DNA of 64,000 nucleotides, taken from the NCBI GenBank assembly GCA_910584975.1, contig CAJUEA010000003.1, positions 34,236 to 98,235 on the forward strand, in the 5' to 3' direction. The translations under genes were made by a program, and so were the position numbers. The notes under the pieces are model-generated. The model did not search any database. It had not been told where the DNA came from and saw only the letters and a program-made list of their open reading frames with translations. Positions 38,552 through 55,590 of this stretch are shown here, one piece after another. Position 1 is the stretch's first letter. Every line of letters begins with the position of its first letter. The stretch comes from an uncultured Christensenella sp. (GTDB lineage Bacteria; Bacillota; Clostridia; Christensenellales; UBA3700).

Positions 38552-38578
38552 ATATTGAGGATAGCTTGGTCATATGCT
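38552..38578 (+). promoter_or_regulatory. Candidate sigma-E-type sporulation promoter
   Basis: ATATT (38552-38556), 14 nt, CATATGCT (38571-38578). This resembles the mother-cell sigma-E pattern ATATT / CATACA-T, recalled from memory. Confidence 0.35.
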
Positions 38579-38595
38579 TTAGCGTGGAGGTTGAT

Positions 38596-39000
38596 ATGGA
38601 GAAAAAAATGAAATTTGGAAAAGAGGATTTGATTGATATTGTAAAAAGCAGTTTAATTGCTGTTGTCAGTTCTTTAGTTTTGATTTTACTTTTTGCAATA
38701 ATAATAAAATTTAGTGGAATTGCTGACAATGTAATTCTTGCAATCAATATGGTAATCAAAAGCATTAGTATTGTACTTGGTATTTTGTTTGGAATAAAGC
38801 ATGCCAGATTGGGTGCAATAAAAGGACTTTTCAGTGGACTTTTGTTTGTTATTGTTTCATATGTGCTTTTTTCAATAATCAATTTGGATGGAAAAATTGA
38901 TTTGATGATGTTGGTTGACAGTCTTATTATTTTGGCAGAAAGTTTGATTTCTGGAATTATCGCGGTTAATATCAAAGATAAAAGGACAGGCAAAAGGTGA
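38596..39000 (+). CDS. Small 4-TM membrane protein (TIGR04086-like), overlapping the spoIIIAA start
   Basis: ATG at 38596 after SD ggagg. 134 aa. Four hydrophobic helices. Its stop overlaps the GTG start of spoIIIAA. Confidence 0.55.
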   Translation: MEKKMKFGKEDLIDIVKSSLIAVVSSLVLILLFAIIIKFSGIADNVILAINMVIKSISIVLGILFGIKHARLGAIKGLFSGLLFVIVSYVLFSIINLDGKIDLMMLVDSLIILAESLISGIIAVNIKDKRTGKR

Positions 39001-39842
39001 ACTCAAGTTTGAAAAGGCTCTTGCGCGAGCAAATTTATTGGAAATTGGAAAAGTATAACGGCATTTGCGAAATAAGGTTTCGGCGTGGCAAAAATGTGGT
39101 TGTTTATACTTTGGGCGATAGGTTTGTTGTTGATTACATTTGCACAGCAGAAGATATAGAGTATGTTTTGAAAATTGCTACATCACGCTCACTTTATGCA
39201 GCAGAGGAGAGTATCAAACAAGGATACATAAGCTGTGAAGGTGGCATAAGAATTGGCATTGTGGGAGAAGCTGTTCTTGATAATGGCAAATTACGAAGTG
39301 TAAAAAATATAAATTCAATAGTAATTCGAATTGCAAAATCAATTCAGAATCTGCCAGTGGAAGTGCTTCCGATAGTGGAAAATTTTGATAACACTTTGAT
39401 AATTTCTCCACCATATCTTGGAAAAACTACAATTTTAAGAGAGATGACAAGAAGGCTTTCAAACAAAGGCAATGACATCCTTGTGATTGATGAGCGAAAT
39501 GAACTTTCTGCAACAACTGATGGTGTGCAAAATTTGGATATGGGTGCAAACACGGATATTATGGTTGGAGTGCCAAAGCTCAATTGCTATGAAGGTGCTG
39601 TAAGAACAATGTCTCCGGATATTATTGTCACAGATGAAATTTTTGGTGGGGCAGAGGTAAGTTGTCTTTTGGATACTGCAAGATGTGGGGTTAAATTTAT
39701 GGCAACTGCACACGGAAAAAATATTGACAAGTTTTTGCAAAATGAGTGCTATTCACCACTGAAAAGTGTGGTTGCAAATTATTTGTTGCTTGGGGATAGT
39801 GTGGGGTGTGTCAAGGAGGTCAGGTGTAATTGTTTAAATTGA
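38997..39842 (+). CDS. spoIIIAA: Stage III sporulation protein AA (ATPase)
   Basis: 281 aa. Walker A PPYLGKTTILRE, Walker B-like ILVIDE. First gene of an 8-gene spoIIIA array. Confidence 0.88.
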   Translation: MNSSLKRLLREQIYWKLEKYNGICEIRFRRGKNVVVYTLGDRFVVDYICTAEDIEYVLKIATSRSLYAAEESIKQGYISCEGGIRIGIVGEAVLDNGKLRSVKNINSIVIRIAKSIQNLPVEVLPIVENFDNTLIISPPYLGKTTILREMTRRLSNKGNDILVIDERNELSATTDGVQNLDMGANTDIMVGVPKLNCYEGAVRTMSPDIIVTDEIFGGAEVSCLLDTARCGVKFMATAHGKNIDKFLQNECYSPLKSVVANYLLLGDSVGCVKEVRCNCLN

Positions 39843-40324
39843 TTTTGGGTGGAACAATTTGCATAGTAGTGTCTTTTATCGGACTGGTTATCAAAAGAAA
39901 ATACAAGGTCAATGCAGATTTTATGACAGCATATGTTGATTTTGTTGGCTATGCAAAAACTGAAATATCCAACAACAAAACACCTGTTTTTACCATAATC
40001 GACAGCTATATTGCAAGAGAAAACAACATCTTTACAAAAGTGCTTGGAGTGATAAACAACAACCTCAAAAAAGATATTGTGGATAGCGAAAGTTATCCCA
40101 AAGAATGTGCTTTGGTGGACAAAAAAAGAATAAAAGCTTTGATATCCGATATTGAAAGCGTGGGAAAATATGACAGCGTTACGGAAATAAACAAACTTAA
40201 AAGCATTGAGGAACGCTCGCTTAAAGATGCGCAAAAGGCGACTGAAAAATATAAAAAAGATGGGGTTATGGCATTTAAATTGTCTGTTGCAATAGGCATT
40301 GCAATCATGATTATTTTGTGCTGA
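39830..40324 (+). CDS. spoIIIAB: Stage III sporulation protein AB
   Basis: 164 aa, TM at both ends, position in the operon. TTG start after SD aaggagg. Confidence 0.75.
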   Translation: MFKLILGGTICIVVSFIGLVIKRKYKVNADFMTAYVDFVGYAKTEISNNKTPVFTIIDSYIARENNIFTKVLGVINNNLKKDIVDSESYPKECALVDKKRIKALISDIESVGKYDSVTEINKLKSIEERSLKDAQKATEKYKKDGVMAFKLSVAIGIAIMIILC

Positions 40325-40330
40325 GTGTGT

Positions 40331-40528
40331 ATGGGAATTGACATAGTTTTTAAGATTGCAGGTGTGGGGCTTATAACTTGGATAATCAATAGTGTGCTGA
40401 AAAAAGCCGATAAAGATGAAATTGCAACTTTTGTAACAATGGCTGGGCTTATTATTGTGCTTTCAATAATTTTGGATATGATAGGTGGTTTGTATAGCAG
40501 TATAAAATCACTTTTGCAGTTATATTGA
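40331..40528 (+). CDS. spoIIIAC: Stage III sporulation protein AC
   Basis: 65 aa, two TM (IFKIAGVGLITWIINSVLKKADKDE). The GTG at 40325 is an alternative start. Confidence 0.8.
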   Translation: MGIDIVFKIAGVGLITWIINSVLKKADKDEIATFVTMAGLIIVLSIILDMIGGLYSSIKSLLQLY

Positions 40529-40914
40529 TGGATATTTTTAAAGTAATAGCAATAGGGTTGATTGGTGCAATAATTGTGGTTATGCTAAAAACGATAAAGT
40601 CGGATTTAAGCATAATGGCAACGCTTGCAACAGGAATAATAATTGTGATTATAACCCTGACATATATTGGCGATGTTATTATCGCGTTTAATCAAATAGT
40701 GGACAAGACTGGGCTTAACAGCAAACTTTTTTCCTCACTTTTAAAAATTGTGGGAATAGGATATCTGACGGAATATTCAAGCAGTATGTGCGAGGATATG
40801 GGTAGCCCAAGCCTTGGCAAAAAAATTCAATTTAGTGGGAAAATAGCTATATTTTTGATGGCTATCCCTGTGGTAACAGCATTGATAAACACAGTGGCAA
40901 ATTTGTTAAAATGA
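40528..40914 (+). CDS. spoIIIAD: Stage III sporulation protein AD
   Basis: 128 aa polytopic protein. TGATG overlap with spoIIIAC. Confidence 0.8.
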   Translation: MDIFKVIAIGLIGAIIVVMLKTIKSDLSIMATLATGIIIVIITLTYIGDVIIAFNQIVDKTGLNSKLFSSLLKIVGIGYLTEYSSSMCEDMGSPSLGKKIQFSGKIAIFLMAIPVVTALINTVANLLK

Positions 40915-40921
40915 GGAAAAT

Positions 40922-42136
40922 ATGCTTCAAAAATCGGTACTAAAAAGTAAAAAATACATATTCATAGCAATGCTTGCTGTATTGATTTTGCTTGCACTGG
41001 CATCAATGTTTTTTGCTGAAAATATTTCTGCAACCACAGCTGCCGAGGAGGAAATTCAAAAAGAACTGGAGGATAATGTAAACAAAAATCTTGAGGATAT
41101 TGATTTTTCTGAGCTTGTCCAGTTTGAAAAAAATTTGGGTGGGATGTCTTACGAAGGTGGCATAACAAAACTTATAAAGGATATTTTGTCAGGGGAATAC
41201 AATGGTGGTTTTGAGGACACCTTCAATTTGATAATAAATATGCTTGGTGTGTCAATAAAAGGCTTTTTGCCTTTGCTTGTAACTTTGATTGCAGTAAGTG
41301 TAATTTTTAGCATTGTAAATGGTTTAACATCTGGCTTTATGTCAAAGTCCACAACAGAAATAATTCATTTTGTGTGCTATTCTGCAATGATTGTAATTCT
41401 TATGACAGAGGTTACTTTTTTGATTTCAGACAGCGTAAAAGCAATAAAAAATATGTCTGCTTTTATGGAAATCATTTTTCCAATAATGCTCACTTTGGTA
41501 ACTGCGCTTGGAGGGATTGCAACAACAGTAACTTACAGCCCTATGATGACAGTCTTATCTGTTGGTGTGGCAAAAATTATCAGTAGCATTGTTTTACCAT
41601 GTTTTATTGCAACAATGGCACTTTCGATAGTTGGTTTTATCTCAAAAGATATCAAGCTTAACAAATTGACAAGTTTTTTTAAGTCTGCAGGCGAAATTAT
41701 TATTGGTGTTGTTTTTGGATTGTTTACAACTTTTGTTACCATAAATGGAATAAGTGGAGCACTTGCAGATAACATTTCTATCAAATCAGCAAAATTTGCA
41801 ATAGCAAGCTATGTGCCAGTTTTGGGTGGTTATTTGAGCGAAGGCTTGGATCTTGCCGTGGCAAGTGTAATGCTTGTTAAAAATGCTGTAGGAGTGGGTG
41901 GTGTAATTATGATGATGTCAATAGTGCTTGCACCCGTTTTAAAAATTCTTGTTTTTTCGCTTGGTTTGAAGTTGGTAGCAGGAATCATTGAGCCAATTGG
42001 AAACAAACGAATGAGCGAAATTATTTATTCAATAAGTAAAAATCTAACTTTGTTGGTAGTGGCAATGCTTGGTATGGCTTTTATGTTTTTTATTATGATG
42101 ATTTTGATTTTGATAACTTGCAATGCAGGAATTTAA
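40922..42136 (+). CDS. spoIIIAE: Stage III sporulation protein AE
   Basis: 404 aa. Signal/TM segment, then a polytopic permease-like body. Position in the operon. Confidence 0.85.
   Translation: MLQKSVLKSKKYIFIAMLAVLILLALASMFFAENISATTAAEEEIQKELEDNVNKNLEDIDFSELVQFEKNLGGMSYEGGITKLIKDILSGEYNGGFEDTFNLIINMLGVSIKGFLPLLVTLIAVSVIFSIVNGLTSGFMSKSTTEIIHFVCYSAMIVILMTEVTFLISDSVKAIKNMSAFMEIIFPIMLTLVTALGGIATTVTYSPMMTVLSVGVAKIISSIVLPCFIATMALSIVGFISKDIKLNKLTSFFKSAGEIIIGVVFGLFTTFVTINGISGALADNISIKSAKFAIASYVPVLGGYLSEGLDLAVASVMLVKNAVGVGGVIMMMSIVLAPVLKILVFSLGLKLVAGIIEPIGNKRMSEIIYSISKNLTLLVVAMLGMAFMFFIMMILILITCNAGI
40927..40945 (+). repeat. TCAAAAATCGGTACTAAAA motif copy
   Basis: Exact 19-mer lying over codons 2-8 of the annotated spoIIIAE start. 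Confidence 0.8.
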
Positions 42137-42163
42137 TTTGCAATAAAGTTGAATGGGGGTGTT

Positions 42164-42613
42164 ATGAATGCATGGTTGCTTTCAATAGTCGGTGTGGTGT
42201 CACTTGGAGTATTGCTTGAAATTTTGCTGGCTGATGGCGAAACATCAAAATATATCAAAGGAGTGTTTGCTTTGGCAGTTGTGCTTATTTTGGTTGCACC
42301 TCTACCTAAGTTTTTGAATAAGGATTTTGATTTAAATGATTTTTTTGGAAAAGAAATGCAAACACAAACAACTTTTTTGAATAGTGTAAACGAAAGGAAA
42401 AATCAAGAGAGAGAAAACAGAATTCTAACCGAATTGAAAAAATCTGAAATTGATGTGCAAAAAGTAAGAATATTTTATTTAAGAGGCGATACTGATAATA
42501 TTGATGTTGTTAAAGTTTATGTGAAAGGAGATTTTGAAAAAGATAAAATTTACAAAGTTGTAGGGGATAACCTTGCTTGCAAACAGGATAAAATTAAAAT
42601 TTATAACGGATAA
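42164..42613 (+). CDS. spoIIIAF: Stage III sporulation protein AF
   Basis: ATG at 42164 after ggggg. Two N-terminal TM plus a soluble domain. Confidence 0.75.
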   Translation: MNAWLLSIVGVVSLGVLLEILLADGETSKYIKGVFALAVVLILVAPLPKFLNKDFDLNDFFGKEMQTQTTFLNSVNERKNQERENRILTELKKSEIDVQKVRIFYLRGDTDNIDVVKVYVKGDFEKDKIYKVVGDNLACKQDKIKIYNG

Positions 42614-42677
42614 AAATATTATAATAAAAAATATAACATTAATTTGAAAATGCATTTTTTCATAAGGAAGGTGGAAT

Positions 42678-43217
42678 GTGGAAAATAAAAATATCATTGA
42701 CAAACGCGGGAAAAAGACAGAAAAAATTGATAAAATTTTGAGAAATAAAAAATTTCAAATAATTTTTGCAGCAGTTGTTCTATTTGTTGTTGTCATTGCA
42801 TATGTTAGTTATGTAAATGTGAAGGACAAGGACAAGCAAGTAACTTTGAGTGACGGCAAAGAACTTACTTCGCAGATTCAGGATGTTTTAGGAAAAATAA
42901 AGGGGGTAGGTGATGTAAAAGTTTTGATTGTTTATGATGGTGGTGAGCAACTTGAGATTGCCTCAAAGGTTGACAAGCGTACAGACAGAGTTGAGGACGA
43001 AGGAAGAGTAACTGAAATAATAGAGGAAACTACAACACCAATCCTTACAAATGGAAATGAACCATTGGTGATTGGGACAAAGCGTGCCAAAATTGACGGA
43101 GTTGTGGTGGTTGCAAAAGGTGGGGATAACCCAAAGGTGAAGGTGGCAATTATGCAGGCACTTTCAACCTTATTAAAAATTGAATATAATTGCATAAATG
43201 TGTTTGGTATGGAATAA
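42678..43217 (+). CDS. spoIIIAG: Stage III sporulation protein AG
   Basis: 179 aa. One TM, then the ring-building domain GVGDVKVLIVYDGG...IDGVVVVAKGGDNPKVK. Confidence 0.85.
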   Translation: MENKNIIDKRGKKTEKIDKILRNKKFQIIFAAVVLFVVVIAYVSYVNVKDKDKQVTLSDGKELTSQIQDVLGKIKGVGDVKVLIVYDGGEQLEIASKVDKRTDRVEDEGRVTEIIEETTTPILTNGNEPLVIGTKRAKIDGVVVVAKGGDNPKVKVAIMQALSTLLKIEYNCINVFGME

Positions 43218-43243
43218 AATATATTAGAAAATCGGAGGTCGTT

Positions 43244-43741
43244 ATGAATATTAAATTGACAGAAAACAAAAAGAAAATTCTTGTATTGAGTTGTATGGTA
43301 GTTTTGCTTGTGGTTGCAGGCACTTTGAGCATTGTGCTTAATCTAAATGCAGGAAAGGCCAATGAGGGTAGCAATATGGATGGAACTCAAAGCACTTTCT
43401 TCAGCGAATTGCAAAGCAATAAAGAGCTAAGAAAAAATGAGCAAATCGCACTTTTGGATGCAATTATCAACAATGATAATTCAACTAAGGAAGCAATTGC
43501 AAATGCTGAAAAAGAGAAACTTGCTATCGTAACAAATATCAAAACTGAAATGGCACTTGAATCAATGATTAAAGCAAAAGGCTTTGATAATGTTGCAGTT
43601 ATGATTGGCAACGAAAAAATCAATGTGTTTGTGGATAAGGCAGAGTTGCTTGATGAGGAAAATGCAGCAATTTGTGCTTTGATTATGGAGCAAACCAACT
43701 TTACAATAGCAGATATCATTATCAATCCAACAAAAATGTAA
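43244..43741 (+). CDS. spoIIIAH: Stage III sporulation protein AH
   Basis: ATG at 43244 after SD ggaggt. 165 aa. N-terminal TM plus a YscJ/FliF-like domain. Last gene of the operon. Confidence 0.8.
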   Translation: MNIKLTENKKKILVLSCMVVLLVVAGTLSIVLNLNAGKANEGSNMDGTQSTFFSELQSNKELRKNEQIALLDAIINNDNSTKEAIANAEKEKLAIVTNIKTEMALESMIKAKGFDNVAVMIGNEKINVFVDKAELLDEENAAICALIMEQTNFTIADIIINPTKM

Positions 43742-43765
43742 TCAAATCACATAAAAATAAATTAT

Positions 43766-43800
43766 AAAAATGTGGTGCAAAATGTGCCACATTTTTTGTT
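43766..43800 (+). terminator. Rho-independent terminator after spoIIIAH
   Basis: aaaaatgtgg (43766-43775) pairs with ccacattttt (43787-43796), followed by a T run. Confidence 0.8.
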
Positions 43801-43977
43801 TTTATTTGCTAAAATTCATTTAAAAAATGAAATAATTATATATGGTAAATGCTATTTTGTTTTTCTTAATATAAAATGTATCAATGACAGAAAGGTAAAA
43901 TTGATTAGCGATAATTTTGAAAGGCATAATAAAATATAATTCAGCAAATTTTGTGCTAATTTGTTTTTATTTGTTGT

Positions 43978-44030
43978 CAATTTCGCCAAATACAAGCCAA
44001 TTTCGCCATTAATATAGATATTATTATATT
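43978..44030 (+). promoter_or_regulatory. Direct-repeat operator (2 x CAATTTCGCCA, 20-bp period) with a candidate -10 TATATT
   Basis: Perfect 11-mers at 43978-43988 and 43998-44008. TATATT lies at 44025-44030, 17 nt after the weak -35-like TTCGCC (44002-44007). Confidence 0.45.
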
Positions 44031-44142
44031 TTTTGATATTATGAAATCAGGAAAGTAGTTTTGCTCTTGAGCTATATCGGTGGCTCAAATTAAAGCAATG
44101 TTTGCTCCCCGTTGCAAATCATTGCTTTAAGAGGGGGTATCA

Positions 44143-46809
44143 ATGATAACATTTAAGGATGTCTACAAAGTTTATGAAAATGGTGCGATAGCTGTCAGCA
44201 ATGTGTCTTTTACTCTGCAAGATACAGGAATGGTGGTTATTGTGGGGCATAGTGGGTCGGGCAAATCGACACTGCTTAATTTGTTGTCAAACAATGATAT
44301 CCCCTCAAAGGGCGAAATCTTTTTGGATAATCAAAATTATAATGATATGGATAAATATATGCTTAACAAAAACTTTGCATATGTTTATCAAGATTTTAAA
44401 CTTATTGAAAATCTTTCTGTTTATCAAAATATTTTGCTAGCTTATGAACTTGCAAACAAGGATATTGACATTGATTTTGTTTTGCAAACAGCAGAGCATT
44501 TTGGAATTTCTGAGTTGCTGGATGAAAAAGTTTATACATTATCTGGTGGACAGCAACAAAGGGTTGCCATTGCAAGAGCAGTTGCAAGTAAAGCAAAAAT
44601 AATTGTCGCAGATGAGCCAACAGGCAATTTGGATAGCACAAACTCTGAAATTGTGTTTGAAACGCTAAAACAGCTTTCTAAGGATAATCTTGTTGTGGTT
44701 GTATCTCACGATAAACGAATCACTCATTTTGCTGACAGATTGATAAGATTGAAAAATGGCTCAATCATAGACGATTTTATGCTGGATGAAAACAAAAATA
44801 ATGTTGAGGAAATTTTGCTTGATTATCAAGAAGAACAAATTGAACAAACAAGTAATGAAGAAAAAGAATCTTTGTTAAATCAACATTCTGAGAGTGATTA
44901 TATGGCAGCAAATTCTGCCGTTCAACCCATAAAAAATAAAGCTGAAAGTTGTGACGATTCAGAGAATGTTGAATTTTCAAAAAACAAAGATAAAAAAGTA
45001 AAAAAACATTCAAAAATCGACACTAAAAGTATATTTAGCTATACAAAAGGAGTAAGTAAAAAAAGGAAAAAAGACGGATTATCCATCAAATCAATCAGTG
45101 CATTGACTTTGTCCTTCGGAAATAAAAATGTCAGCAAAAAAGTGACTTTGGCTGTGGTTTCCGTGGTTATGATTATGTTGATTTTTTTGAGCTCAGCTGT
45201 CTTGTTTTCTTCCACAGAATTTTCTTTTTGCAAAAATATGAAAATCAACAAGGCTCCATTTTTCGCTTACACCACAGGAGGCAATGGATATAGTCTTAAT
45301 AAAGAGGAGTATGGCAAACTTAATGGCTATATAAAAAACAAATATGGAAAAGAATGTTATGTTTATGAGCAAACATATTTGAATAATTATGTGGGTGATA
45401 TTGTACCTGCAGGAGATGTGGTTGCACCTTCTTATGCAAAGCATATGAACTTAAATCATACGGATACTCTTTATATTGATAATCCTAGTGATTTAAATTT
45501 GAAATTTGTTGTTGGGGTGCCACCAAAGGCAAATGACAAATATCCCGAAATTGCAATTTCAAAAACTTGGTACAATTATTTTTGTGAAGTAAAGCGTTTT
45601 GACAATAGCTTTGGAGAAATTGTTGATTTTGAAAAAACTGAACTTATTGGACAATATATTGAGCCATTCAATTTTGCAATCACAGGTGTTTTTGAGGATT
45701 ATAACAACGACTACAATATGAACACGGATGACAAAGACTGGCAATTGCACCTTTATAACAGTTTAGTTTTTACAATTGTGCGTCCACAAGCAGCACTTGC
45801 AAACAACAAAGCAATTTTTTTAAATCCGCTTAGTAATTATCGATTGGTGTTTGAGGATATGCAAAGACAAACTTTTTCTTTTGCACCAAATTCAAAAGAG
45901 TTTTATGACTATTATTTTAAAGATCACAAGTTCACTCCACTTGTTGAAAATGAAGTTTTGATTGATAAGTCCTATGCAGAGAGTTATAGGTATCAATCGG
46001 GGAATAAAATTGAAGTAGGCTCACAAGTCAAATTGAAATTTATTAAGGAAAGACCGGGGATTTCAGGTGGATTATATTTGGGGGATTATGGCACAAAAAC
46101 TTTTGTGGTTAAAGACATTGTGGATAATCTTAATGCGATTGTTATCAATGAAAAAGTTTTTAATGAGTGGACAGATGGTATTTTGCCATTGTCTGAAAAT
46201 TTTGCAATAAGTAGCAAAAAAGTAACTCCACAAATGTTAAAAGATATTAGAAACTTTGCATACAATGGCATTTCTGCTGAAATTTCAAGCCTTATCAAAG
46301 ATGACTTTTATAAGGAAAATTTTTATTTGGATTTTTATATGTTCAAATGCAACAGAAATGATGAATATACCAATTCTGTTATTATGATTGTAAGAATGTG
46401 TATTGCGTTACCTTTGTTTATTCTGTCGGTTATGGTGTTTGGCATTGTTGCTTCTGTGCTGATTGCAGATATGATAAAATCAAAAAGCAATGAAATTTTG
46501 ATTCTAAAAACACTTGGTGCAAAAAGCTTGGATATATGGAAAATCTTTGGTTGTATTTTGTTGTTACTGGTAGTGTTCCAATTTGTAGTCGGCACACTGC
46601 TAGGCGTGGGAATAGTTGGTGCTCTTAATGCATTTTGGATGATAATTGGGAGCTATGATTTTTATGCCACAACATTTTTTATCACAGCACCATGCGTATT
46701 TATCGTGTTGCTTGCAATTGCTGGGATAAGTGCTTTTGGATTGTGGTTTAATGTCAAAAAGTTGAATGACGAAAATTTGCGTTGTGCTTTTCAAAATCAA
46801 AAGAAATAA
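44143..46809 (+). CDS. MacB-type fused ABC transporter (N-terminal ATPase plus FtsX permease), copy 1
   Basis: 888 aa. [38 protein letters not shown]. Then TM1, a ~400-aa extracytoplasmic domain and an FtsX domain (SNEILILKTLGAKSLDI). Confidence 0.88.
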   Translation: MITFKDVYKVYENGAIAVSNVSFTLQDTGMVVIVGHSGSGKSTLLNLLSNNDIPSKGEIFLDNQNYNDMDKYMLNKNFAYVYQDFKLIENLSVYQNILLAYELANKDIDIDFVLQTAEHFGISELLDEKVYTLSGGQQQRVAIARAVASKAKIIVADEPTGNLDSTNSEIVFETLKQLSKDNLVVVVSHDKRITHFADRLIRLKNGSIIDDFMLDENKNNVEEILLDYQEEQIEQTSNEEKESLLNQHSESDYMAANSAVQPIKNKAESCDDSENVEFSKNKDKKVKKHSKIDTKSIFSYTKGVSKKRKKDGLSIKSISALTLSFGNKNVSKKVTLAVVSVVMIMLIFLSSAVLFSSTEFSFCKNMKINKAPFFAYTTGGNGYSLNKEEYGKLNGYIKNKYGKECYVYEQTYLNNYVGDIVPAGDVVAPSYAKHMNLNHTDTLYIDNPSDLNLKFVVGVPPKANDKYPEIAISKTWYNYFCEVKRFDNSFGEIVDFEKTELIGQYIEPFNFAITGVFEDYNNDYNMNTDDKDWQLHLYNSLVFTIVRPQAALANNKAIFLNPLSNYRLVFEDMQRQTFSFAPNSKEFYDYYFKDHKFTPLVENEVLIDKSYAESYRYQSGNKIEVGSQVKLKFIKERPGISGGLYLGDYGTKTFVVKDIVDNLNAIVINEKVFNEWTDGILPLSENFAISSKKVTPQMLKDIRNFAYNGISAEISSLIKDDFYKENFYLDFYMFKCNRNDEYTNSVIMIVRMCIALPLFILSVMVFGIVASVLIADMIKSKSNEILILKTLGAKSLDIWKIFGCILLLLVVFQFVVGTLLGVGIVGALNAFWMIIGSYDFYATTFFITAPCVFIVLLAIAGISAFGLWFNVKKLNDENLRCAFQNQKK
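45009..45027 (+). repeat. Motif copy TCAAAAATCGACACTAAAA
   Basis: Matches the consensus at 17 of 19 positions. Lies in the ATPase-permease linker region of the fused ABC gene. Confidence 0.7.
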
Positions 46810-46824
46810 CAGAGGGGGGTTATT

Positions 46825-49434
46825 ATGATAAAATTGCAAAATGTAAGCAAAACTTACGAAAACGGAACTTTGGCAGTTGACGATGTGAATTTTGAATTGC
46901 CGGAAAAAGGTATGGTCGCCATTGTTGGAACAAGTGGTTGTGGCAAATCAACTATTCTCAATTTAATGTCGCACAATGACATTGTATCTTCAGGCGAAAT
47001 TTTATATAATGACAAAAATGCAAATGAGTTTGATGGGGGTTCTTTGGCTAATGATTTTGCATATGTTTATCAAGATTTCAAACTAATTGACAACTTGACT
47101 GCTTATCAAAACATCATGATTGGCAGTGAGCTTGCAGAAAATGGTGCAGACTACGAATTTGTTTTGGAGATTGCAAAAAACTTAGGCATAGTGGATAATC
47201 TTGATGAAAAAGTTTATGCATTATCTGGTGGCGAGCAACAAAGGGTTGCCATTGCAAGAGCGATTGCAAGAAAGCCTAAAGTGATTTTTGCTGACGAGCC
47301 GACTGGCAATTTGGACGAGGAAAATAGCATTAATGTTTGCAACATTTTGAGAAAACTTGCAAATGATATTTTGGTTGTGGTTGTATCACACGAGCAAGAA
47401 ATTGCTGACTGGGCAGACAGGGTAATAACAATGCTTGACGGAAAAATTTTGTCGGATGAGGCAGGAAAGGCAATGCCTGAAAAGCAACTGGAAAGGGATG
47501 AAAATAGTTTGTCGGATAGCGAAGTTGCAGAGCTTATAAGGCAAAAAAATCAAAAAGGGGAAAAGACAGGTGAGTTTTTCTCTTTCAAAAACAAGCCGAA
47601 AACAGCAAAGAAGAAAAAAGGACTTTCAGCAAAATCTTCAGTTGGGTTAAGTCTTGCATTGCTCAACAAAGATATTGCAAAAAAAGTTTGCCTAACCATA
47701 GTTATGATTATTTTGATATCAGTCATGGTACTTTCTGTTTCAATGTCTTTTGCCACATCTGAAAAAACTTTGGCAAACGCAATCAATAATTTGAATGGCG
47801 ATAAAAAGTTGTTTGAAGTTGATTATGTTGTTGGCAAAGATGATTATAAAATGGATGACCACAATTTAAGTCAAATTGATGGTATTCTTGAAAGAAATAA
47901 CCTCGACTTTTATGAAATTGGCACTGGCGAAGTGATTGCAAATGGTTGGGGAAATTTGCAGACCAACAATGCAAATTTGTCAGCATATTTTGTGGATATG
48001 GAGCTGAAAAATCAAGAAAGAGCATTGTTTGTTGATGACCCAAAAAGTTTGGGGATAGAAATTTTAATCGGAAGGACAGCAACTAAAAATAATGAAATTG
48101 TGATTTCAAAAACATACTATGATTATTTGCTGCATTGCAAAAATTTTTATGTGGAAATCAACGAAATTGAGTATGAGTTAAGTTTTGATGAAAGCAATAT
48201 TTTGGATTCAGTAATAAGTCCGTTTGGCGTGAAAATTTGTGGCGTTTTTGATGACAGAAATAATGTGGATAATAGTTTGAAAGATAAACAATGGGATAAA
48301 TTGTCTGTAGCAGAACAAACGGAAATAAAAACAATAGTAAATCTTGAGCATCGCACAAATCCACTTATCAATCTTGTTATCAAATGCAAATCTGCTCAAC
48401 AAGATTGGAAACAATTTGCAGGTGTTAACTCCGATTTGAAAATTGCCGTTGAGGATTGCTTTGGCTATCAAAATGCCGAATATTATTTTGAGTATATGCC
48501 ATACAGCGATTGCACAAAAAGATATTTCAATTTTGACTTGGGCATAAATCCAAAGGATTTGGAGCAAAACAGCATCATTGTGGATAAAAATACTTTGGCA
48601 AAGTTGAATGAGTATTTGATTAGCAATCATTTTGACGAAGTTTTTGAAGGTGACAAAATCTCTTTGTCAGTGGTTGGCATGACAAAACTTGAACCTATGG
48701 GATATTATTATCCTAATAAAGTGTACAAAATTCAAGAATTTACCATTGCAAAAGTATTGGATGATATGGGCACAGCAAATGGCAAAATTTTGTTTAGTGA
48801 AAGAGTTTTTGACAAACTTACTGGCTATGGCAAACTTTCCACTGAGCGAATGATTTGTGCTGATAAGGTCACTGCAAAGCAACTTACAGCTTTAAATAAA
48901 GATTACAAAAGGCATTTTGAGTTAAAGTTTCAAGCTTGGTCAGATAGCTATTTGTCTTATTCAATAGCAGGTTGCCCTATGACAAGAGTATCCGATTATG
49001 ATTTTATTGGAATTTGCCAAAAATATGTGAGCATTCCACTTATGATTGTGGCAATTTTACTGACTGTTGCAATGATAGTGTTGTTCTATTTTGATTTTGT
49101 AAAAACAAAAGCAAACGAACTTTTGATTTTAAAATCTTTGGGTGCAAAAACAAAAGACTTTTTGGGGATATACGGAATTTTCAGCCTTGCACTCATTATT
49201 GTTCAGTTGATATTTGGCTTGGCGTTTGGCAGTCTTTTGATTTATATTGTCAACATTTTGGCATCAAATATAAGTGGTTATATGTCTGTATTTTCAGTGT
49301 TCTATCTTGATGCAGCTGCTTGGATTTTCAGCATTTGTGCAATAGCAGTTATAAATGTAATCAGCCTTGCAATAAGTATGGCTGGAATAAACAACAAAAA
49401 TCTTCGCAAATCCTTCCAAAAACTAAAAAAATAA
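46825..49434 (+). CDS. MacB-type fused ABC transporter, copy 2 (paralog)
   Basis: 869 aa. [38 protein letters not shown]. FtsX domain ([17 protein letters not shown]). Confidence 0.88.
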
Positions 49435-49456
49435 TCAATTTTTTTCAATTTTAATA

Positions 49457-49485
49457 TTGACATTATCTTAAATTTAGAATATACT
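49457..49485 (+). promoter_or_regulatory. Sigma-A type promoter
   Basis: TTGACA (49457-49462), 17-nt spacer, TATACT (49480-49485). Confidence 0.6.
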
Positions 49486-49566
49486 ATAAGTATACAAAGT
49501 GTTTCTTTTAAGATATTTATTAAAAATTGTTTTTATATCAAAATTATTATTGAAATTATTTAGAGT

Positions 49567-49604
49567 AGATAGACTTCAAAAGCATAGACTTTTGAAGTCT
49601 ATCT
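49567..49604 (+). other. 16-bp perfect hairpin in the leader of the lipoprotein gene
   Basis: agatagacttcaaaag (49567-49582), loop cataga, cttttgaagtctatct (49589-49604), followed by ttttaaaaa. Confidence 0.7.
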
Positions 49605-49739
49605 TTTAAAAATGGGGGTGACAAAATTTTAGTTTGTGGGAAAATAGTCAATGTCTTTTGACATCTTGAAATTGATAAAAAATTTAATTATTGATTTCAA
49701 TCGGCATATTAAATGCTGTTTAAAAATTCAGTGAGGAGT

Positions 49740-50249
49740 ATGAAAAAAAATATTAAAATTATCGTTTCAATATTGCTTTTAGTTATGCTTTTTAGCCTTG
49801 GCATTTTGTTAACTGGGTGTGATAACAATGAAGAACCAGGTTTTACAAAAGTAACTTTGCATCCAATAAATGCAATAACAGGCAATGAAATAAAACCAGG
49901 AGCAACCATTAAAATTAGTCAAAAAGATATTAAAGGCAAATATGATTGGCTAAAATTTGCTTATGAAATTGAAGGAGTAAAAAAACATGTGTCATTGGAA
50001 AATAAATATGTGAAAAATCGAGATATCAGGTATAGTGAATTGTATCATTTAACAAGTATTTATGCCGAAATTAATAATGAAAAAACAATTTTGAAACAAT
50101 GGGGAAGAGTTTCTACCCTAAGTGAAAAAGGTGTTTACAATATTAGTATTGGATTTAATGAGCGTGTAACTGATTTGGATCGAATAGTTTTTACTCCATC
50201 ATATCGATTTGACACATGTGATTTCCAATTTGTATTGGAAATAAATTAA
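49740..50249 (+). CDS. Small lipoprotein of unknown function
   Basis: ATG at 49740 after SD gaggag. 169 aa. Lipobox LLTGC (MKKNIKIIVSILLLVMLFSLGILLTGCDNN). Confidence 0.7.
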   Translation: MKKNIKIIVSILLLVMLFSLGILLTGCDNNEEPGFTKVTLHPINAITGNEIKPGATIKISQKDIKGKYDWLKFAYEIEGVKKHVSLENKYVKNRDIRYSELYHLTSIYAEINNEKTILKQWGRVSTLSEKGVYNISIGFNERVTDLDRIVFTPSYRFDTCDFQFVLEIN

Positions 50250-50269
50250 ATTATATTTTGGGGGATAAA

Positions 50270-53200
50270 ATGTGTAATAAAAAAACTAATAATAAAATTT
50301 TTATTGTTGCAGTTTTAATTATCGCTTTGTTGTTAAGCACAATCGCATTAGTTGTGCCAAAAACAAATTTGCATAATAAAAACTTGCAACTAAATAATGA
50401 TACTAGTTATGAAGATAAAATTGCTAATTTAACAGAGGGTACATATTCTTTCACAAACAATGAGATTGTAAACGGCATCAACATAGATGAATATGTAAAC
50501 TATTATGCAAAAAATGCATCAGTTAAATATAGTGCAGCTAAAGTAAAATATGTTATGAGTGTGTATGGGAATGATGATATAGTCAATTTTATTCCAGAAG
50601 ATTTGTTTAAAACTACTGGTTTTAAACAGCATTTTGGTAAAAAATATGGGTTTGTTGTGAGCACATCAGAAAGATTAAATTGTCAGGCATTAATTTCTTC
50701 AGTAATGCTTGTAAAAATTACAACTTCTGATGTTTATGACTCGACATCTCACCTTAAAATAAGGGTGGAACCAATCTTTCAAGCAGATTTTGCTTATGTA
50801 AACAAAAGTATTACAAAAATGGTTGCAATAGAATATCAAAGTAAGGATATTTTTGTTAATAATTATCTTGATAAGGTTATAATGGATTATCAATGTGATG
50901 GGGAAGAATTTATTGTGCCTGTTCCAACTGATGCTTTGGGACTTAATATGGAATTTAAGCAACATAATAAATTAAGATTATCAAATCCAACAAATATGGT
51001 TTCATTGTATAATGTCAATGGACTAAATCCTTGGGATAATGGATTTGACCCATATAAAGATAAAGGAGCGTTTTTCAGTCAAATTGATTTTGCATATGAA
51101 GGAAAATATTTGGTGCCAACTCAATCGGATTATGCTGATATAGGTGAATTATCAGTAAATATGATTAGCACAACTTTTGATGCACTGGACTTGTTACATG
51201 CAATAGATAATTTGAAAGAATTAAAATATCTTAAATCAGTGTTCAAAGCTATGCCATATGTTGGAGTAGCATTTTCAACAATTGATATCATAGCAGATAT
51301 TGCAAAATTGACTAGCAAAGCGAAATTTGAAGAAATTGGAAAAGAAAAGAAATTTTCTTATAAGGCATTTTTTAATAATAAGGAGCAACAAATACAAAAT
51401 GGAGGATTGCAAAAAGATGCTACTATTGCAATAAAAATTAATGAACCTGGCAAACAATTTTTGGTTGGCACAGGTGATTTTTTTGAATTTGATTATCAAA
51501 TAAATACTCAAGACCCAAATGTCGATATGGTTTATGCAAGTATGTTTGTGTGTGATGTTTATCAAGCAAACACAGCTGGTTCGTTAAACAATAAATCTGA
51601 AACTATTTTATTGGGTAATGTTGCAAGTGTTTTTAGCAATGAACTAATAAACAATAAAGATAAAAATTACAAGGAAGTTCCTGCGATTGATATAGATCAA
51701 ACAAATTTGGATTACGAAACTATAAATATTTTGCCAAATAGAGAAAGTGTTATTAAGATAACGCCTAAATTTACTGGCAAGTTTGATTTGACAATGAGTG
51801 AAAATCCATATGCTAAATTTAAAGTTTATAGGGTGCTTAAAGCGGCTGTTATTGGTAAGGATTATCGATTTGGCAGTGTGTATGCAAGTAGCGTTATGAA
51901 AAATAATTGTGCAGTTATTGAAAATTTAAATTTAAACAACAATTTTTCTTATATTATTGTAGCTGATTTGCAAAATAATTCTGCTAATGATAAAATTAGT
52001 ACCCGTTATGATATTTTGAATTTAAATATTAAATTCTTAGCAAATGAAATACATTATGGTAGTAATAATTTAGAATTGGAAAACAAAGAGGAAATCATTG
52101 CTTTTAATTGTAAGTATAATATGTACTATTATTTTGATTTCAATAAAGAGCAATTTGAGTCAATCTTTTTGTTAAATAACGAATATGATATTGTACAAGA
52201 TTGTTTATTAAGTGATGAGATAAAAGTATCTTCAAATTATGGTAGCAAGGTAATATTTTTTAAAGTAGTATTTAAAGATAATGTTGATAGAACCATAGAT
52301 GTTTCAATAAGAGATGAAATGAATGTAATTTTTACAAATGCTGATAATACAATAAATGAGTTTGACAAGCAAATTATTATTAATACGCAAGACGAATTTT
52401 CTTTGCCACAACCAATAAAAAATGGATATGTATTTGAAGGTTGGATTATGAACAATGGCAATCCTGATATTATTATAAATAATCAAAACATTTTCCATTT
52501 TGCAAGACCTGATTTAGAGTTAATAGCAATATGGTCTGTGATTGAATATGATATAACCTTTGTGACAAATGGTGGAACATCAATTGATAGTGTAAAATAT
52601 AACATAAAATATTCTTTTGACTTAAATGGTTTAACTCCAACAAAAGATAGTTATCATTTTGCAGGTTGGTATGATAATCCACAATTTAGTGGTAGTAGAA
52701 TTAATGTGTTAAAAGCAGGCAATTATGGCGATAGAACTTATTATGCAAAATGGATAAAAAATCAACTGCAATTGGAACTTGATGTTAATAAAGCAGCAGT
52801 TGATGGTGTAGATGTTAAGATTAATCAAACTGATTTTGTAGTGAATTATGGTAAATCATATACCTTGCCAGTTCCATATGCCGATGGTTTTATTTTTGAA
52901 GGTTGGTATTATGGTAATAAAAAATTAACAAATGCTTATGGGATTAGCCTACAAGTTTTTGAAGAAGATTCAGATATTACTTTGACAGCGCATTGGGCAA
53001 GAGAAGTCTTTTATTTTAGGATTAATAAAAATAATGGCACCTATGTATGGCTAACGCAAATTGGGGATGAATTTGTTGTAATGCCAAATAAAGTTGGTAT
53101 TGAGTTTTCTGTAGGAATGTGTCCAAATTGCTTTATCATTGGACAGCTTGCACTGAAAAATGAAAATAGTGAATTAATTAGACAAAGATTATTCCGAGAA

Positions 53201-54892
53201 GGAAAATATTTTACACATATGTCAACTGCAAATTCAAAGGAAAGCTTTTGTTGGAAGGATATTAATGCCTTGTCATTGTTTGATAGGGACAAAACTTTTG
53301 CGTTATATCCACAATATAATACAGAAAAATATAGGATTGTAATTTCAAAAGATAAAGTATCACAAGAAGAATTTGTGCTTGAATATGGACAAAATTTATA
53401 TGAAAATGGCGTATTTTTGCCACAAGTAACTACAATTTTTGATGATAAAAATGGTTATTATGTTGATGGATATGAGGTGGCAGATGTTATTGAAAATTAT
53501 AAGTATAATGGTAGCCACTTTGCTATTGGCAGTGTTTTTAACTATAAGCAGATGCCTGATTTATCAAATCAATTTTTCACATATGATGACATATATTCCA
53601 TCTATCTGACGGCACATTATTCACCAAAGCATTATGTTGTAAATTTTGAAAATGTGGTTGATGAGTTGGAACCAATTGAAGTTGAATTTGGTGGAATTTA
53701 TACTTATAATAAAGCATTGCCTGTTCCATTGAAAAACGGCTATATTTTTGCTGGGTGGTGTGTTTCGGGAAATGGAGAGCCAATTTCAAATAATTTGGGA
53801 TACATTGAACAATGGAATATTGCAAGTGATTGTACACTATATGCAAAATGGGATATTGCCGAATTTACAATTACATTGGATGCTAATAGTGGTTCTGTTG
53901 ATCAAACTGAAATCAAGTATAATATTGAAATGGAAACATTTAAATTGCCTATTGCCTATAAAAGTTGGTATACATTTATGGGTTGGAAATATGGCAATCA
54001 AACTATTACTGAGTTAGAAACAGGAACCTATGGAGATATTGTTTTAGTTGCTGTATGGGATAAAGAAAAGGTTAACGCAATTATTTTTGGAGAAAATATA
54101 ATAGATAGAAATGGATTAATAATTGATATTAGTTTGTCAGGGTCGTTAATTAGTCAATCTTTTATAATCGAAGATACAGTTAGTGAGATAACATTTACGG
54201 GAAGATTGTTACCTATGTCATATAAAACAATTAAAATCAAACCTAGAACTAAAGATTTGTCAATAAAATTAAAACAATTTAATGTTTATGGAAATTATAA
54301 TGGATCTGTTATTGATGCTAGCGAATGTCATACTTTAAATTTAATTGTGGATGGAAAAAACTTTTTAGGTTCAGGAAACAAATTTTTGACAACTGTAGAT
54401 TCTATTAAGGCTGCAATTATGTGTCAAAATATTAATATTTCAGGGACTAATAATGGAGAGTTAGAATTGCTGGGTGGTGCAGGTTTTGGGCTAGTAGATA
54501 ATAAGCATGGTTTGTCTGGTTCGTCTGGTATTTATGGAACTGGAAGTACAATGAGAATATCAAATGTCAAATTGACGGCAACTGGTGGCAATGGCTATGG
54601 TGGATATGTTGATAACAATGGCGGCATTGGTGGTAATGGTGGCAATGGCGGACATGGTATATACTTTTATGGTAGAATTATAGTAAATGATAGTAGTAAA
54701 GTTGTTGCAAAAGCAGGTAATGGTGGTAATGCTGGTAGTCGTGGCAGGCCTGGTAGTCCTGGTTCACCGGTTATTGCGTCTGATGGGGTTTCAGGTACAA
54801 TTGAAAGAATATATGGAGATTCTGGTAGTTATTCATTGAATTCATATGACTTTGTAGAAAATGAAATACAATTAGATACTAATATTGCATAA
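50270..54892 (+). CDS. Giant N-terminally anchored surface protein with Listeria-Bacteroides (Flg_new/InlB B-repeat type) repeats and a glycine-rich C-terminal region
   Basis: ATG at 50270 after ggggga. 1540 aa. Signal-anchor IFIVAVLIIALLLSTIALVV. At least 5 repeats of the type GY.F.GW......G........L.A.W between about 52320 and 54065. Tail GGNGYGGYVDNNGGIGGNGGNGGHG...GNGGNAGSRGRPGSPGSP. No LPXTG. Confidence 0.8.
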   Translation: MCNKKTNNKIFIVAVLIIALLLSTIALVVPKTNLHNKNLQLNNDTSYEDKIANLTEGTYSFTNNEIVNGINIDEYVNYYAKNASVKYSAAKVKYVMSVYGNDDIVNFIPEDLFKTTGFKQHFGKKYGFVVSTSERLNCQALISSVMLVKITTSDVYDSTSHLKIRVEPIFQADFAYVNKSITKMVAIEYQSKDIFVNNYLDKVIMDYQCDGEEFIVPVPTDALGLNMEFKQHNKLRLSNPTNMVSLYNVNGLNPWDNGFDPYKDKGAFFSQIDFAYEGKYLVPTQSDYADIGELSVNMISTTFDALDLLHAIDNLKELKYLKSVFKAMPYVGVAFSTIDIIADIAKLTSKAKFEEIGKEKKFSYKAFFNNKEQQIQNGGLQKDATIAIKINEPGKQFLVGTGDFFEFDYQINTQDPNVDMVYASMFVCDVYQANTAGSLNNKSETILLGNVASVFSNELINNKDKNYKEVPAIDIDQTNLDYETINILPNRESVIKITPKFTGKFDLTMSENPYAKFKVYRVLKAAVIGKDYRFGSVYASSVMKNNCAVIENLNLNNNFSYIIVADLQNNSANDKISTRYDILNLNIKFLANEIHYGSNNLELENKEEIIAFNCKYNMYYYFDFNKEQFESIFLLNNEYDIVQDCLLSDEIKVSSNYGSKVIFFKVVFKDNVDRTIDVSIRDEMNVIFTNADNTINEFDKQIIINTQDEFSLPQPIKNGYVFEGWIMNNGNPDIIINNQNIFHFARPDLELIAIWSVIEYDITFVTNGGTSIDSVKYNIKYSFDLNGLTPTKDSYHFAGWYDNPQFSGSRINVLKAGNYGDRTYYAKWIKNQLQLELDVNKAAVDGVDVKINQTDFVVNYGKSYTLPVPYADGFIFEGWYYGNKKLTNAYGISLQVFEEDSDITLTAHWAREVFYFRINKNNGTYVWLTQIGDEFVVMPNKVGIEFSVGMCPNCFIIGQLALKNENSELIRQRLFREGKYFTHMSTANSKESFCWKDINALSLFDRDKTFALYPQYNTEKYRIVISKDKVSQEEFVLEYGQNLYENGVFLPQVTTIFDDKNGYYVDGYEVADVIENYKYNGSHFAIGSVFNYKQMPDLSNQFFTYDDIYSIYLTAHYSPKHYVVNFENVVDELEPIEVEFGGIYTYNKALPVPLKNGYIFAGWCVSGNGEPISNNLGYIEQWNIASDCTLYAKWDIAEFTITLDANSGSVDQTEIKYNIEMETFKLPIAYKSWYTFMGWKYGNQTITELETGTYGDIVLVAVWDKEKVNAIIFGENIIDRNGLIIDISLSGSLISQSFIIEDTVSEITFTGRLLPMSYKTIKIKPRTKDLSIKLKQFNVYGNYNGSVIDASECHTLNLIVDGKNFLGSGNKFLTTVDSIKAAIMCQNINISGTNNGELELLGGAGFGLVDNKHGLSGSSGIYGTGSTMRISNVKLTATGGNGYGGYVDNNGGIGGNGGNGGHGIYFYGRIIVNDSSKVVAKAGNGGNAGSRGRPGSPGSPVIASDGVSGTIERIYGDSGSYSLNSYDFVENEIQLDTNIA

Positions 54893-54941
54893 TAATATAA
54901 TGTCAAACATTTATATAATTATTAGATGAATTTCAAATTAT

Positions 54942-54979
54942 AAAAAATTAGGTTGAGTTTTACTTGACCTAATTTTTTG
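54942..54979 (+). terminator. Rho-independent terminator after the giant gene
   Basis: aaaaaattaggt (54942-54953) pairs with acctaatttttt (54967-54978). Confidence 0.75.
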
Positions 54980-55179
54980 TGAATATTAGTAAATACTGCA
55001 AAAAAGGTCAATACTTGAATAAGAGTATGTTTTTGTCGTTTTATAGAAATTAGGGCTAATATTTTTTTGTAAAAATTGCATATAATTGAAATTGCAGAAA
55101 CATAGTTGTTTATTTAAAGTTATTTTTAGTATAATTTTTGCATAAAAATATAAAAATGCATAAAAAATTTGAATAAATC

Positions 55180-55208
55180 TTGCTTTTATAAATTATTTAT
55201 GCTAGAAT
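55180..55208 (+). promoter_or_regulatory. Sigma-A type promoter for asp23-nusB-folD
   Basis: TTGCTT (55180-55185), 17-nt spacer ending in TG, TAGAAT (55203-55208). Confidence 0.5.
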
Positions 55209-55257
55209 ATATTTGTATATTTATAAATAAAAACTTTTATATATTTTAAGGAGCAAT

Positions 55258-55590
55258 ATGGATAATACATTAAATCAAAATACTTATATAAGTTTAATTG
55301 CATCAATAATTTCCGGCGCGGCATCTAAGGCAAAAGGTGTGGCATCTATCAGCACGGAAAGTGGTATAATCAACAAGTTTACATCCAAAGATGGCTATGA
55401 CGGAATGGAAATTGTTATCACTCATACAAATATGGTGGTAATTTCTTTGTCAATCAATGCATATTTTGGCTATCCATTGCCTGAAATAGTAAGTGAATTG
55501 CAAAACACAATCAAAAAAGATATTGAAGAGCAAACAAGTTTTAAAGTTAAAGCTATCAATGTAAATGTTGTTGGTGTTGTTTTTGTTTAA
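55258..55590 (+). CDS. Asp23/Gls24-family (alkaline shock) protein
   Basis: 110 aa. IASIISGAASKAKGVASI and VNVNVVGV are typical of Asp23. Position upstream of nusB. Confidence 0.8.
   Translation: MDNTLNQNTYISLIASIISGAASKAKGVASISTESGIINKFTSKDGYDGMEIVITHTNMVVISLSINAYFGYPLPEIVSELQNTIKKDIEEQTSFKVKAINVNVVGVVFV

Follow-up and report, generated by a model that had tools for sequence, protein, structure and literature searches.

Two probably independent modules, a MacB-type ABC pair and an adhesin-like cassette, at a variable spoIIIAH-asp23 site in an uncultured Christensenella

The 64,000-nucleotide stretch of DNA analyzed here (the window; positions 34,236 to 98,235 of contig CAJUEA010000003.1, GenBank assembly GCA_910584975.1, from an uncultured Christensenella sp.) carries an interval between spoIIIAH and an asp23-family gene (43742-55257) that has four sizeable genes and no more, each of them on the + strand. 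They encode two paralogous ABC proteins, ABC1 and ABC2, in which a nucleotide-binding domain (NBD) is fused to an FtsX-type membrane domain, a small lipoprotein, and a giant protein with Flg_new repeats (Table 1). The gene order around spoIIIA and asp23 is conserved in Bacillus; further to the right of the interval, the genes for XseA/B, IspA, Dxs, NadK, ArgR, and RecN follow, as judged from the annotation of a near-identical contig (L006). The first-pass annotation of this DNA had described an accessory block of about 11 kb that splits a conserved neighborhood, and this description stands: the interval measures 11.5 kb, its coordinates and gene calls all check out, and the spoIIIA operon ends in its own terminator, with the hairpin and T-run located at 43766-43796. 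We likewise recovered both fused MacB-type ABC proteins, the 169-aa lipoprotein, and the 1540-aa protein, as well as, at the level of sequence features, the proposed candidate operator, internal promoter, and terminator.

Table 1. Coordinates of the genes and sequence signals at the spoIIIAH-asp23 site, given as positions in the window.
Feature	Position	Strand	Description
SpoIIIAH gene, left flank	43190-43741		Pfam SpoIIIAH, E 2.4e-25
Intrinsic terminator of the spoIIIA operon	43766-43796	+	14-bp stem and T-run; -15.3 kcal/mol, z -3.5
TTTCGCCA-N12-TTTCGCCA direct repeat	43981-44008	+	Candidate target of an ABC-pair activator that acts as a dimer
Weak promoter-like site, extended -10	44015-44042		Immediately downstream of the TTTCGCCA direct repeat
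ABC1 gene, fused NBD-FtsX, 888 aa	44143-46809	+	Pfam ABC_tran, E 6e-34, plus FtsX
ABC2 gene, ABC1 paralog, 869 aa	46825-49434	+	Pfam ABC_tran, E 3e-31; same architecture
Inserted cassette, 5.7 kb	49443-55118		Missing in sister species L015; lowest GC3
Promoter-like TTGACA-17-TATACT, left end of cassette	49457-49485	+	11/12 matches; consensus match alone
Leader hairpin, 16 bp, then UUUU	49567-49604	+	-23.3 kcal/mol, z -5.5; AT-rich, upstream of the lipoprotein gene
Small lipoprotein gene, 169 aa	49740-50249	+	Likely ATG at 49740, after AGGAG; frame open from 49713
Giant open reading frame	50258-54892	+	Likely ATG at 50270, giving 1540 aa; Flg_new x4
Intrinsic terminator of the cassette	54940-54980	+	-18.7 kcal/mol, z -7.9
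asp23-family gene, right flank	55258-55590	+	Pfam Asp23; followed by NusB and FolD

A scan of species-representative genomes with SpoIIIAE returned six congeners at 81-84% identity, mouse-gut and other metagenome-assembled genomes labeled as uncultured Christensenella or Christensenellaceae, onto which the window proteins were then mapped. In three of these genomes (L009, L010, and L013) asp23 directly follows spoIIIAH, and this empty junction shows the conserved neighborhood directly. Among the others, L011 has a 1.5-kb gap with two small predicted membrane open reading frames (ORFs) of 167 and 76 aa (L011 13265-14002), the shorter of which encodes a CxxC...CxxC motif; L012 has a single ABC2-like gene; and in L014 the start of an ABC gene lies at the contig end. 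L012 and L010 share 95% DNA identity and are separated by a clean 2.6-kb indel that corresponds exactly to the ABC gene. The genomic contexts of ABC1 homologs additionally revealed a sister species (L015), whose SpoIIIAE, SpoIIIAH, and Asp23 proteins are 92, 95, and 96% identical to those of the window and whose gene order is spoIIIAH, ABC1 (72%), ABC2 (81%), and asp23, with neither the lipoprotein gene nor the giant gene. In L018, a more distant congener, ABC1 and ABC2 likewise follow spoIIIAH.

The boundaries of these differences are sharp. Homology to the empty-site congeners stops at about 43764, and homology to L015 and the empty-site loci resumes at 55119-55162; the asp23 promoter region from 55119 onward is conserved in all congeners. 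The DNA of L015 is colinear with window positions 35074-49442 and again from 55119, and about 200 bp of L015 sequence, including the ABC2 terminator, replaces 5.7 kb of the window. A neighbor-joining tree of the spoIIIAE-AH DNA groups the window with L015 and L012 with L010, both at 100% support. The interval had previously been called an insertion or a lineage-specific module, which agrees with the lineage-specific interruption seen here in a site that is empty in L009, L010, and L013. Thus, the stretch that runs from the spoIIIA terminator to the asp23 promoter is a variable, cargo-tolerant site in this genus of low-GC gut Clostridia. It resembles the genomic islets found between conserved operons in its presence-absence polymorphism, in its sharp boundaries between a terminator and the next promoter, in cargo that differs by species, and in the atypical composition of its newest cargo. 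Unlike such islets, the window site has no tRNA, integrase, transposase, or target-site duplication. In agreement with the first-pass annotation, the ORF list and a repeat search gave no integrase, transposase, or relaxase ORF or other recognizable mobility gene in the block, and no direct, inverted, or terminal repeat and no target-site duplication at the boundaries of either the block or the cassette. The variable site is ordinary genome plasticity without recognizable mobility genes.

The composition of the four genes divides the block in two. The 39 backbone ORFs of the window have a GC content at third codon positions (GC3) of 0.298 +/- 0.033 and a mean codon distance from the backbone pool of 0.129 +/- 0.033. 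ABC1 (GC3 0.283, codon distance 0.076) and ABC2 (0.314 and 0.074) are not distinguishable from this backbone, whereas the lipoprotein gene (0.190 and 0.174) and the giant gene (0.190 and 0.134) have the lowest GC3 of the window, 3.3 standard deviations under the backbone mean, and the codon distance of the giant gene is high given its length. In GC and codon usage, 44143-54892 is therefore not uniform: the cassette genes are atypical and the ABC genes backbone-like. Site comparison and composition together indicate that the block is layered. The ABC pair has long been resident, and the foreign cassette (49443-55118) arrived more recently, as an insertion between ABC2 and the asp23 promoter in this species alone.

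From left to right, the cassette carries its promoter-like site, the hairpin of the leader, the genes for the lipoprotein and the giant protein, and finally a terminator. No promoter-like site of the block scores higher than this one, which is equaled by a single minus-strand site within the giant gene, and the hairpin could serve as an attenuator, an RNA stabilizer, or a weak terminator for read-through from ABC2. All four genes of the block are under purifying selection within the species, with ratios of nonsynonymous to synonymous polymorphism (pN/pS) of 0.12-0.52 overall, 0.12 for the lipoprotein, 0.16-0.25 for the giant protein, and 0.18-0.32 for ABC1. The lipoprotein gene of L019 (9444-9977, compared with window 49740-50249) has a synonymous divergence (pS) of 0.145, with flanking genes at about 0.01-0.05, and the gene is identical in L006; this pattern suggests allele replacement by recombination inside the cassette.

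The four-gene set is present in the window, L006, and L019 alone, which are strains of one species with 98-100% protein identity; the lipoprotein is 95.5% identical in L019, below the other proteins of the set. ABC genes of the window family occur without a giant-family gene in L015, L016/L017, L030, and L031; in L016/L017 a 266-aa secreted protein precedes the ABC pair in a mobile-element-like context. Conversely, the giant homolog P0008 and its small partner have no ABC gene within 10 kb, and the giant homologs of L005 and L007 have none within 10 kb downstream. The sole other lineage with an adjacent ABC gene is L008, where a split giant gene is flanked by a small ORF on one side and by a gene for an 829-aa ABC-FtsX protein on the other; this ABC protein is similar to the window ABC proteins in the NBD only (40%) and is not an ortholog. 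The window itself contains a second type VII ABC cluster (16927-25214) with four FtsX-type permeases of 420, 573, 447, and 559 aa, of which the 420-aa permease also has MacB_PCD, a separate ABC ATPase (19978-20868), and a 450-aa ORF without a Pfam match. It also contains another giant surface protein of 1318 aa with BspA-type LRR_5 repeats (57-4013), encoded upstream of hrcA-dnaK-dnaJ, with grpE presumably located between hrcA and dnaK. The genome is rich in ABC systems of this type. Since a single window holds a second FtsX/ABC cluster and a further giant surface protein, chance adjacency of such genes is likely.

The small protein of the cassette has a signal peptide and a lipobox (LLTG↓C). 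It has no match in Pfam, NCBIfam, or a PDB profile search, a word-based protein search returned same-species copies alone, and a profile comparison with the giant family was negative. Its position is nevertheless shared: in all eight lineages with upstream sequence (the window species; L020; L033, partial; L008; L001-L004 with L022 and L025; L032; L023; and L026 with L028), a small membrane-anchored ORF lies directly 5' of the giant homolog. These upstream ORFs encode 155-190 aa with an N-terminal membrane anchor or lipobox, occur as two or three copies in some lineages, and are 22-31% identical to the window lipoprotein. The P0008 giant homolog and its 158-aa partner are located on an integrative mobilizable element, with a serine recombinase and tyrosine integrases to one side and a Mob_Pre relaxase to the other. 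The small anchored ORF and the giant gene are thus a conserved gene pair that also travels on a mobile element. In L023, two tandem giant-family genes (8-1117 and 2866-5889) are separated by two small anchored ORFs, which shows that the cassette can be arrayed.

The N-terminus of the giant protein carries a hydrophobic segment; a conserved head (about 700 aa), a stalk of Flg_new (InlB B-repeat) units, and a variable glycine-rich C-terminus follow. Pfam detects four or more Flg_new repeats (E 9e-31). No LPXTG-like motif was found and the sole hydrophobic segment is N-terminal, so the protein does not qualify as a sortase-anchored adhesin. A canonical A-x-A signal-peptidase site follows the hydrophobic segment in most homologs and is missing, on direct reading, in the window giant, which may for this reason stay N-terminally anchored. 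Members of the family are few: among 5.8 billion proteins, a word-indexed search returned 14 clusters, and a HMMER search with the head against 1.84 billion representatives returned 117 clusters, 49 of them at E <= 1e-10. Pfam assigned Flg_new and GLUG alone, and no enzymes, to distant members of the head family. Three C-terminal types exist among the homologs; the window type is the glycine-rich one, with no domain assigned. In another group (P0004, P0005, and P0006, from L005 and L007), the C-terminus starts with CVAEG(T/S)xITLADG and continues with a helical domain of about 100 aa, a layout that resembles the self-cleaving termini of polymorphic toxins. A Hint/intein module was considered for these C-termini and rejected, the matches being sub-threshold (Hint, E 0.16; intein-domain protein, E 0.12). 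Like other Firmicutes surface proteins with Flg_new (Listeria-Bacteroides/InlB B-repeat) units, the giant is large and extracellular, with a signal sequence and Flg_new repeats; unlike them, it has no leucine-rich repeats (LRR), GW, LPXTG, or recognized wall-binding domain, and its head lies outside Pfam. In the literature, searches on Listeria-Bacteroides repeat proteins of this type brought up no specific match.

The head has no Pfam match, and for the first 712 residues of the giant a structure was predicted with a predicted local distance difference test score (pLDDT) of 70 and a predicted template modeling score (pTM) of 0.63. The top 24 PDB fold matches of this model are all botulinum hemagglutinin HA70/HA3, with E-values from 2e-10 to 4e-7, probabilities of 0.97-1.00, and a template modeling (TM) score of only 0.12-0.22. 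Later matches include HA70 domain D3 and the jelly-rolls of collagen-binding and CUB domains, followed by weaker ones to the alpha-hemolysin family. The HA70/HA3 family itself has three domains, of which D3 is a double jelly-roll. A link at the sequence level between the head and HA70 or any solved protein was sought and dropped, since the PDB profile search matched the InlB B-repeat alone; a viral origin of the head was also dropped, as a BFVD fold search gave nothing convincing. The likeness to HA70 comprises the fold matches of the head and the small protein encoded beside the giant, as HA70 partners the 17-kDa HA17. The differences are several: there is no sequence likeness; the window contains no ha operon (HA17, HA33), non-toxic non-hemagglutinin (NTNH) gene, or neurotoxin gene, and the neighboring genes are unrelated; the head of the giant is fused to Flg_new repeats and a variable C-terminus within 1540 aa; and its partner is a lipoprotein without detectable likeness to solved proteins.

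ABC1 and ABC2 are 32% identical over their full length. By hydropathy, ABC1 has an NBD (1-220), a linker, transmembrane helix TM1 (336-354), an external region (about 355-755), and TM2-4 (756-869), and ABC2 has the equivalent topology; the secondary structure of an AlphaFold2 model of ABC1, built from 29 homologs (pLDDT 77.8), agrees with this map. The top PDB fold matches of the model are full-length MacB structures (5lj7, 5lil, 5gko, and 5nik; E 3e-28 to 5e-20, target TM-score 0.58-0.63), and the alignment covers the whole chain. Catalytic motifs are intact in both paralogs: Walker A, the LSGG signature, and the H-loop were found by pattern, and Walker B with its glutamate (IIVADE/VIFADE) was read directly from the proteins. 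Pfam places FtsX on the C-terminal helices of both; MacB_PCD (Porter/Sabre) was not detected in either at E <= 0.01, though it is reported for another permease of the window. A MacA-like adaptor or outer-membrane duct was found neither in the block nor in the orthologous loci of L015 and L018, and the block lacks genes for a kinase or a response regulator. We consider here a type VII ABC superfamily that includes MacB, LolCDE, FtsEX, BceAB, and HrtBA. ABC1 and ABC2 are members of this superfamily, with a MacB-type fused NBD-FtsX architecture, and are new to its known repertoire; since motifs and fold are kept and neither an adaptor nor a two-component system is nearby, the pair represents neither MacAB-TolC nor a Bce system.

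Like MacB, both proteins start with the NBD, continue into an FtsX-type membrane domain of four helices, and place a large external domain after TM1 and before TM2. In contrast, the external domain spans about 400 aa in the pair and about 215 in MacB, no MacB_PCD is detected, and the pair consists of two divergent tandem paralogs, whereas MacB is a homodimer; ABC2 is probably the heterodimer partner of ABC1. The window contains neither a MacA-like adaptor nor TolC, as expected in a Gram-positive lineage. The Bce systems have a separate ATPase, a ten-helix permease, and a BceRS-like two-component system, whereas ABC1 and ABC2 are fused, four-helix proteins. Tandem pairs of an ABC1-like and an ABC2-like gene recur in L015, L018, and L016/L017. 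The two proteins are 72-81% identical between the window and L015, while the flanking proteins are 92-96% identical, and relative to L018 the external domains are the most divergent folded domains (38-41% identity). Literature searches for MacB-type systems of this kind found nothing specific.

Other loci of the ABC family have features of their own. In L030, three tandem fused ABC-FtsX genes of the window family (6204-14528) lie between mreB and minD/minE, and their 5' parts share 91-95% DNA identity. They are preceded by a gene for a 261-aa secreted protein that is 100% identical to that of L014 (L014 886-4274), where a single ABC copy is located upstream of spoIIIA. This identity points to a recent duplication or exchange, or to an assembly collapse. 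L016 encodes a version of the secreted protein that is 45% identical, and this 261-266-aa protein of L014, L016, and L030 may be a dedicated partner or substrate of the ABC proteins; the window encodes no homolog of it.

Upstream of ABC1, the direct repeat TTTCGCCA-N12-TTTCGCCA has one match in the window against 0.00 expected. Among the fetched loci, the repeat, with a spacer of 12 or 13 nucleotides, is kept only upstream of ABC1, namely in the window, L006, L019, L015, and L018; it is retained although ABC1 identity drops to 43%. A periodicity of about 21 bp is typical of LytTR-class repeats. Dimers of the LytTR-domain regulator AgrA recognize pairs of direct repeats located just before the promoters that they control (PMC4227749). 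Given the conservation of the motif, its position before a promoter, and the precedent of AgrA, the most economical reading is that the ABC pair is inducible and depends on a putative regulator acting at the candidate TTTCGCCA repeats. A structured leader upstream of ABC1 (folding z-score of -3.4) was dropped as a candidate because it is not conserved in L015.

Rfam gave nothing over the block, leaders included, at gathering thresholds or at E <= 1, and no riboswitch; the only Rfam match in the window is the bacterial large signal recognition particle RNA (RF01854, 171 bits) at 10537-10802. A search of the three intergenic regions for small peptide or bacteriocin genes gave spurious ORFs alone.

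Taken together, we propose that the block probably consists of two independent modules with different arrival times: a type VII ABC pair, putatively inducible, and an independently acquired adhesin-like cassette. A fast-evolving and probably inducible MacB-type pair would be resident at the site in part of the genus. A regulator would switch it on through the TTTCGCCA repeats, and the ABC1/ABC2 heterodimer would, by analogy with its superfamily, use cytoplasmic ATP hydrolysis to move its external domains (mechanotransmission). On the outer side of the membrane, this motion may expel or reshape a target, with an antimicrobial peptide as the leading guess, or else an envelope component. In one species the cassette would then have inserted downstream of ABC2 and ahead of asp23, taking the place of the ABC2 terminator. 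The giant would act as a surface adhesin or lectin carried on its Flg_new stalk, with an exchangeable C-terminal tip and a head that resembles HA70 in fold only, and the lipoprotein, whose pairing with the giant is observed, may tether, fold, or hold it at the membrane. The modules would adjoin because the cassette landed beside a resident ABC pair and not through a joint function.

Several points weigh against this two-module reading. The window has no terminator between ABC2 and the cassette; read-through from one into the other is possible because the insertion replaced the ancestral ABC2 terminator, and where present it may be a consequence of the insertion, with no sign of shared function. 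L008, with its small ORF, giant, and ABC-FtsX gene side by side, is a weak counter-example, and further large Flg_new proteins are encoded near window-family ABC genes in L029 and L017, which leaves room for a looser association between ABC genes and giant surface proteins. The spoIIIAE-AH tree has no resolution at the deep nodes and does not decide between gain and loss of the ABC pair in each lineage. The HA70 likeness comes from a medium-confidence model (pLDDT 70) with a low global TM-score and no sequence-level match, and the functional roles of the ABC pair and the cassette are ones that we infer.

The first-pass annotation had favored a single envelope system, in which the MacB-type pair would mechanically release, display, or remodel the lipoprotein and the giant adhesin. 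The genes are indeed co-oriented and contiguous with no strong terminator after ABC2, the L008 row and the LRR/Flg_new giant that adjoins window-family ABC genes in L029 offer partial parallels, and LolCDE, from the same superfamily, handles lipoproteins. This idea nevertheless fails on co-occurrence, since the four genes are found together nowhere outside this one species (window, L006, and L019) and the sister species L015 keeps the ABC pair alone. The cassette family is moreover found as a pair on a mobilizable element with no ABC gene within 10 kb, the L008 ABC protein is alike in its NBD only, the two halves of the block differ in composition, and the giant has its own Sec-type N-terminal signal, all of which makes a single system quite improbable. 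We give only slightly more credence to an antagonistic module, also unlikely, in which the giant would be a polymorphic effector with an aerolysin-like, pore-forming head and exchangeable C-terminal domains, the small protein an immunity or handling factor, and the ABC pair an additional means of self-protection. HA70 has an aerolysin-like pseudo-toxin body (D1/D2) and a carbohydrate-binding domain D3 (PMC12383247), and the head has weaker fold matches to the alpha-hemolysin/leukocidin family. Residues 282-356 of the head are of low confidence in the model and contain runs of alternating hydrophobic and polar residues by direct reading; conservation of the head contrasts with three different C-terminal types, one of them with the weak Hint-like match (E 0.16); and the small partner is always membrane-anchored, evolves fast, and shares a mobile element with the giant gene. 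However, HA70 itself is non-toxic, the fold matches to pore-forming toxins have low probabilities (0.14-0.69), the Hint match is below significance, and no toxin domain was recognized in any C-terminus. Downstream of the giant gene, the usual place of immunity genes, the terminator is followed by asp23 with no extra gene.

Least plausible of all, and in our view very improbable, is that the whole block is ancestral backbone lost in relatives, with no insertion. The backbone-like composition of the ABC pair and the upstream motif kept in three lineages that share 43-72% ABC1 identity would fit long residence followed by loss. The cassette does not conform to this scenario: its GC3 is the lowest in the window, its absence from the sister species has sharp boundaries, mobile elements carry its relatives, and the pS of 0.145 in the L019 lipoprotein gene, against about 0.02 in its flanks, suggests allele exchange. 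A bolder view of the cassette, which we regard as doubtful yet less remote than these three alternatives, is that the small anchored protein and the giant form an undescribed, horizontally mobile two-component surface module of gut Clostridia. It would combine an HA70-like head (an aerolysin fold with a lectin part) and exchangeable tips with an obligate partner serving as tether, chaperone, or immunity protein, function in host-glycan adhesion or contact-dependent antagonism, and have been captured beside the ABC pair, perhaps with co-transcription.

No result here overturns current understanding. One sister genome was enough to split an apparent four-gene system, whose genes owe their adjacency to past events at a permissive insertion site. 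Rapid evolution, tandem duplication, and a conserved upstream repeat make the ABC pairs a tractable case for MacB-type function in Gram-positive bacteria. As far as our literature searches reach, no description exists of a gene pair in which a small anchored protein accompanies a giant with an HA70-like head, and neither the head nor the partner has a Pfam model. The giant family is rare, mobile among gut anaerobes, and always paired with a small membrane-anchored protein, and the fold of its head resembles the botulinum hemagglutinin, a binder of host glycans and E-cadherin. If the head binds host or microbial glycans, these proteins would represent a new class of commensal adhesins related to a component of a toxin complex.

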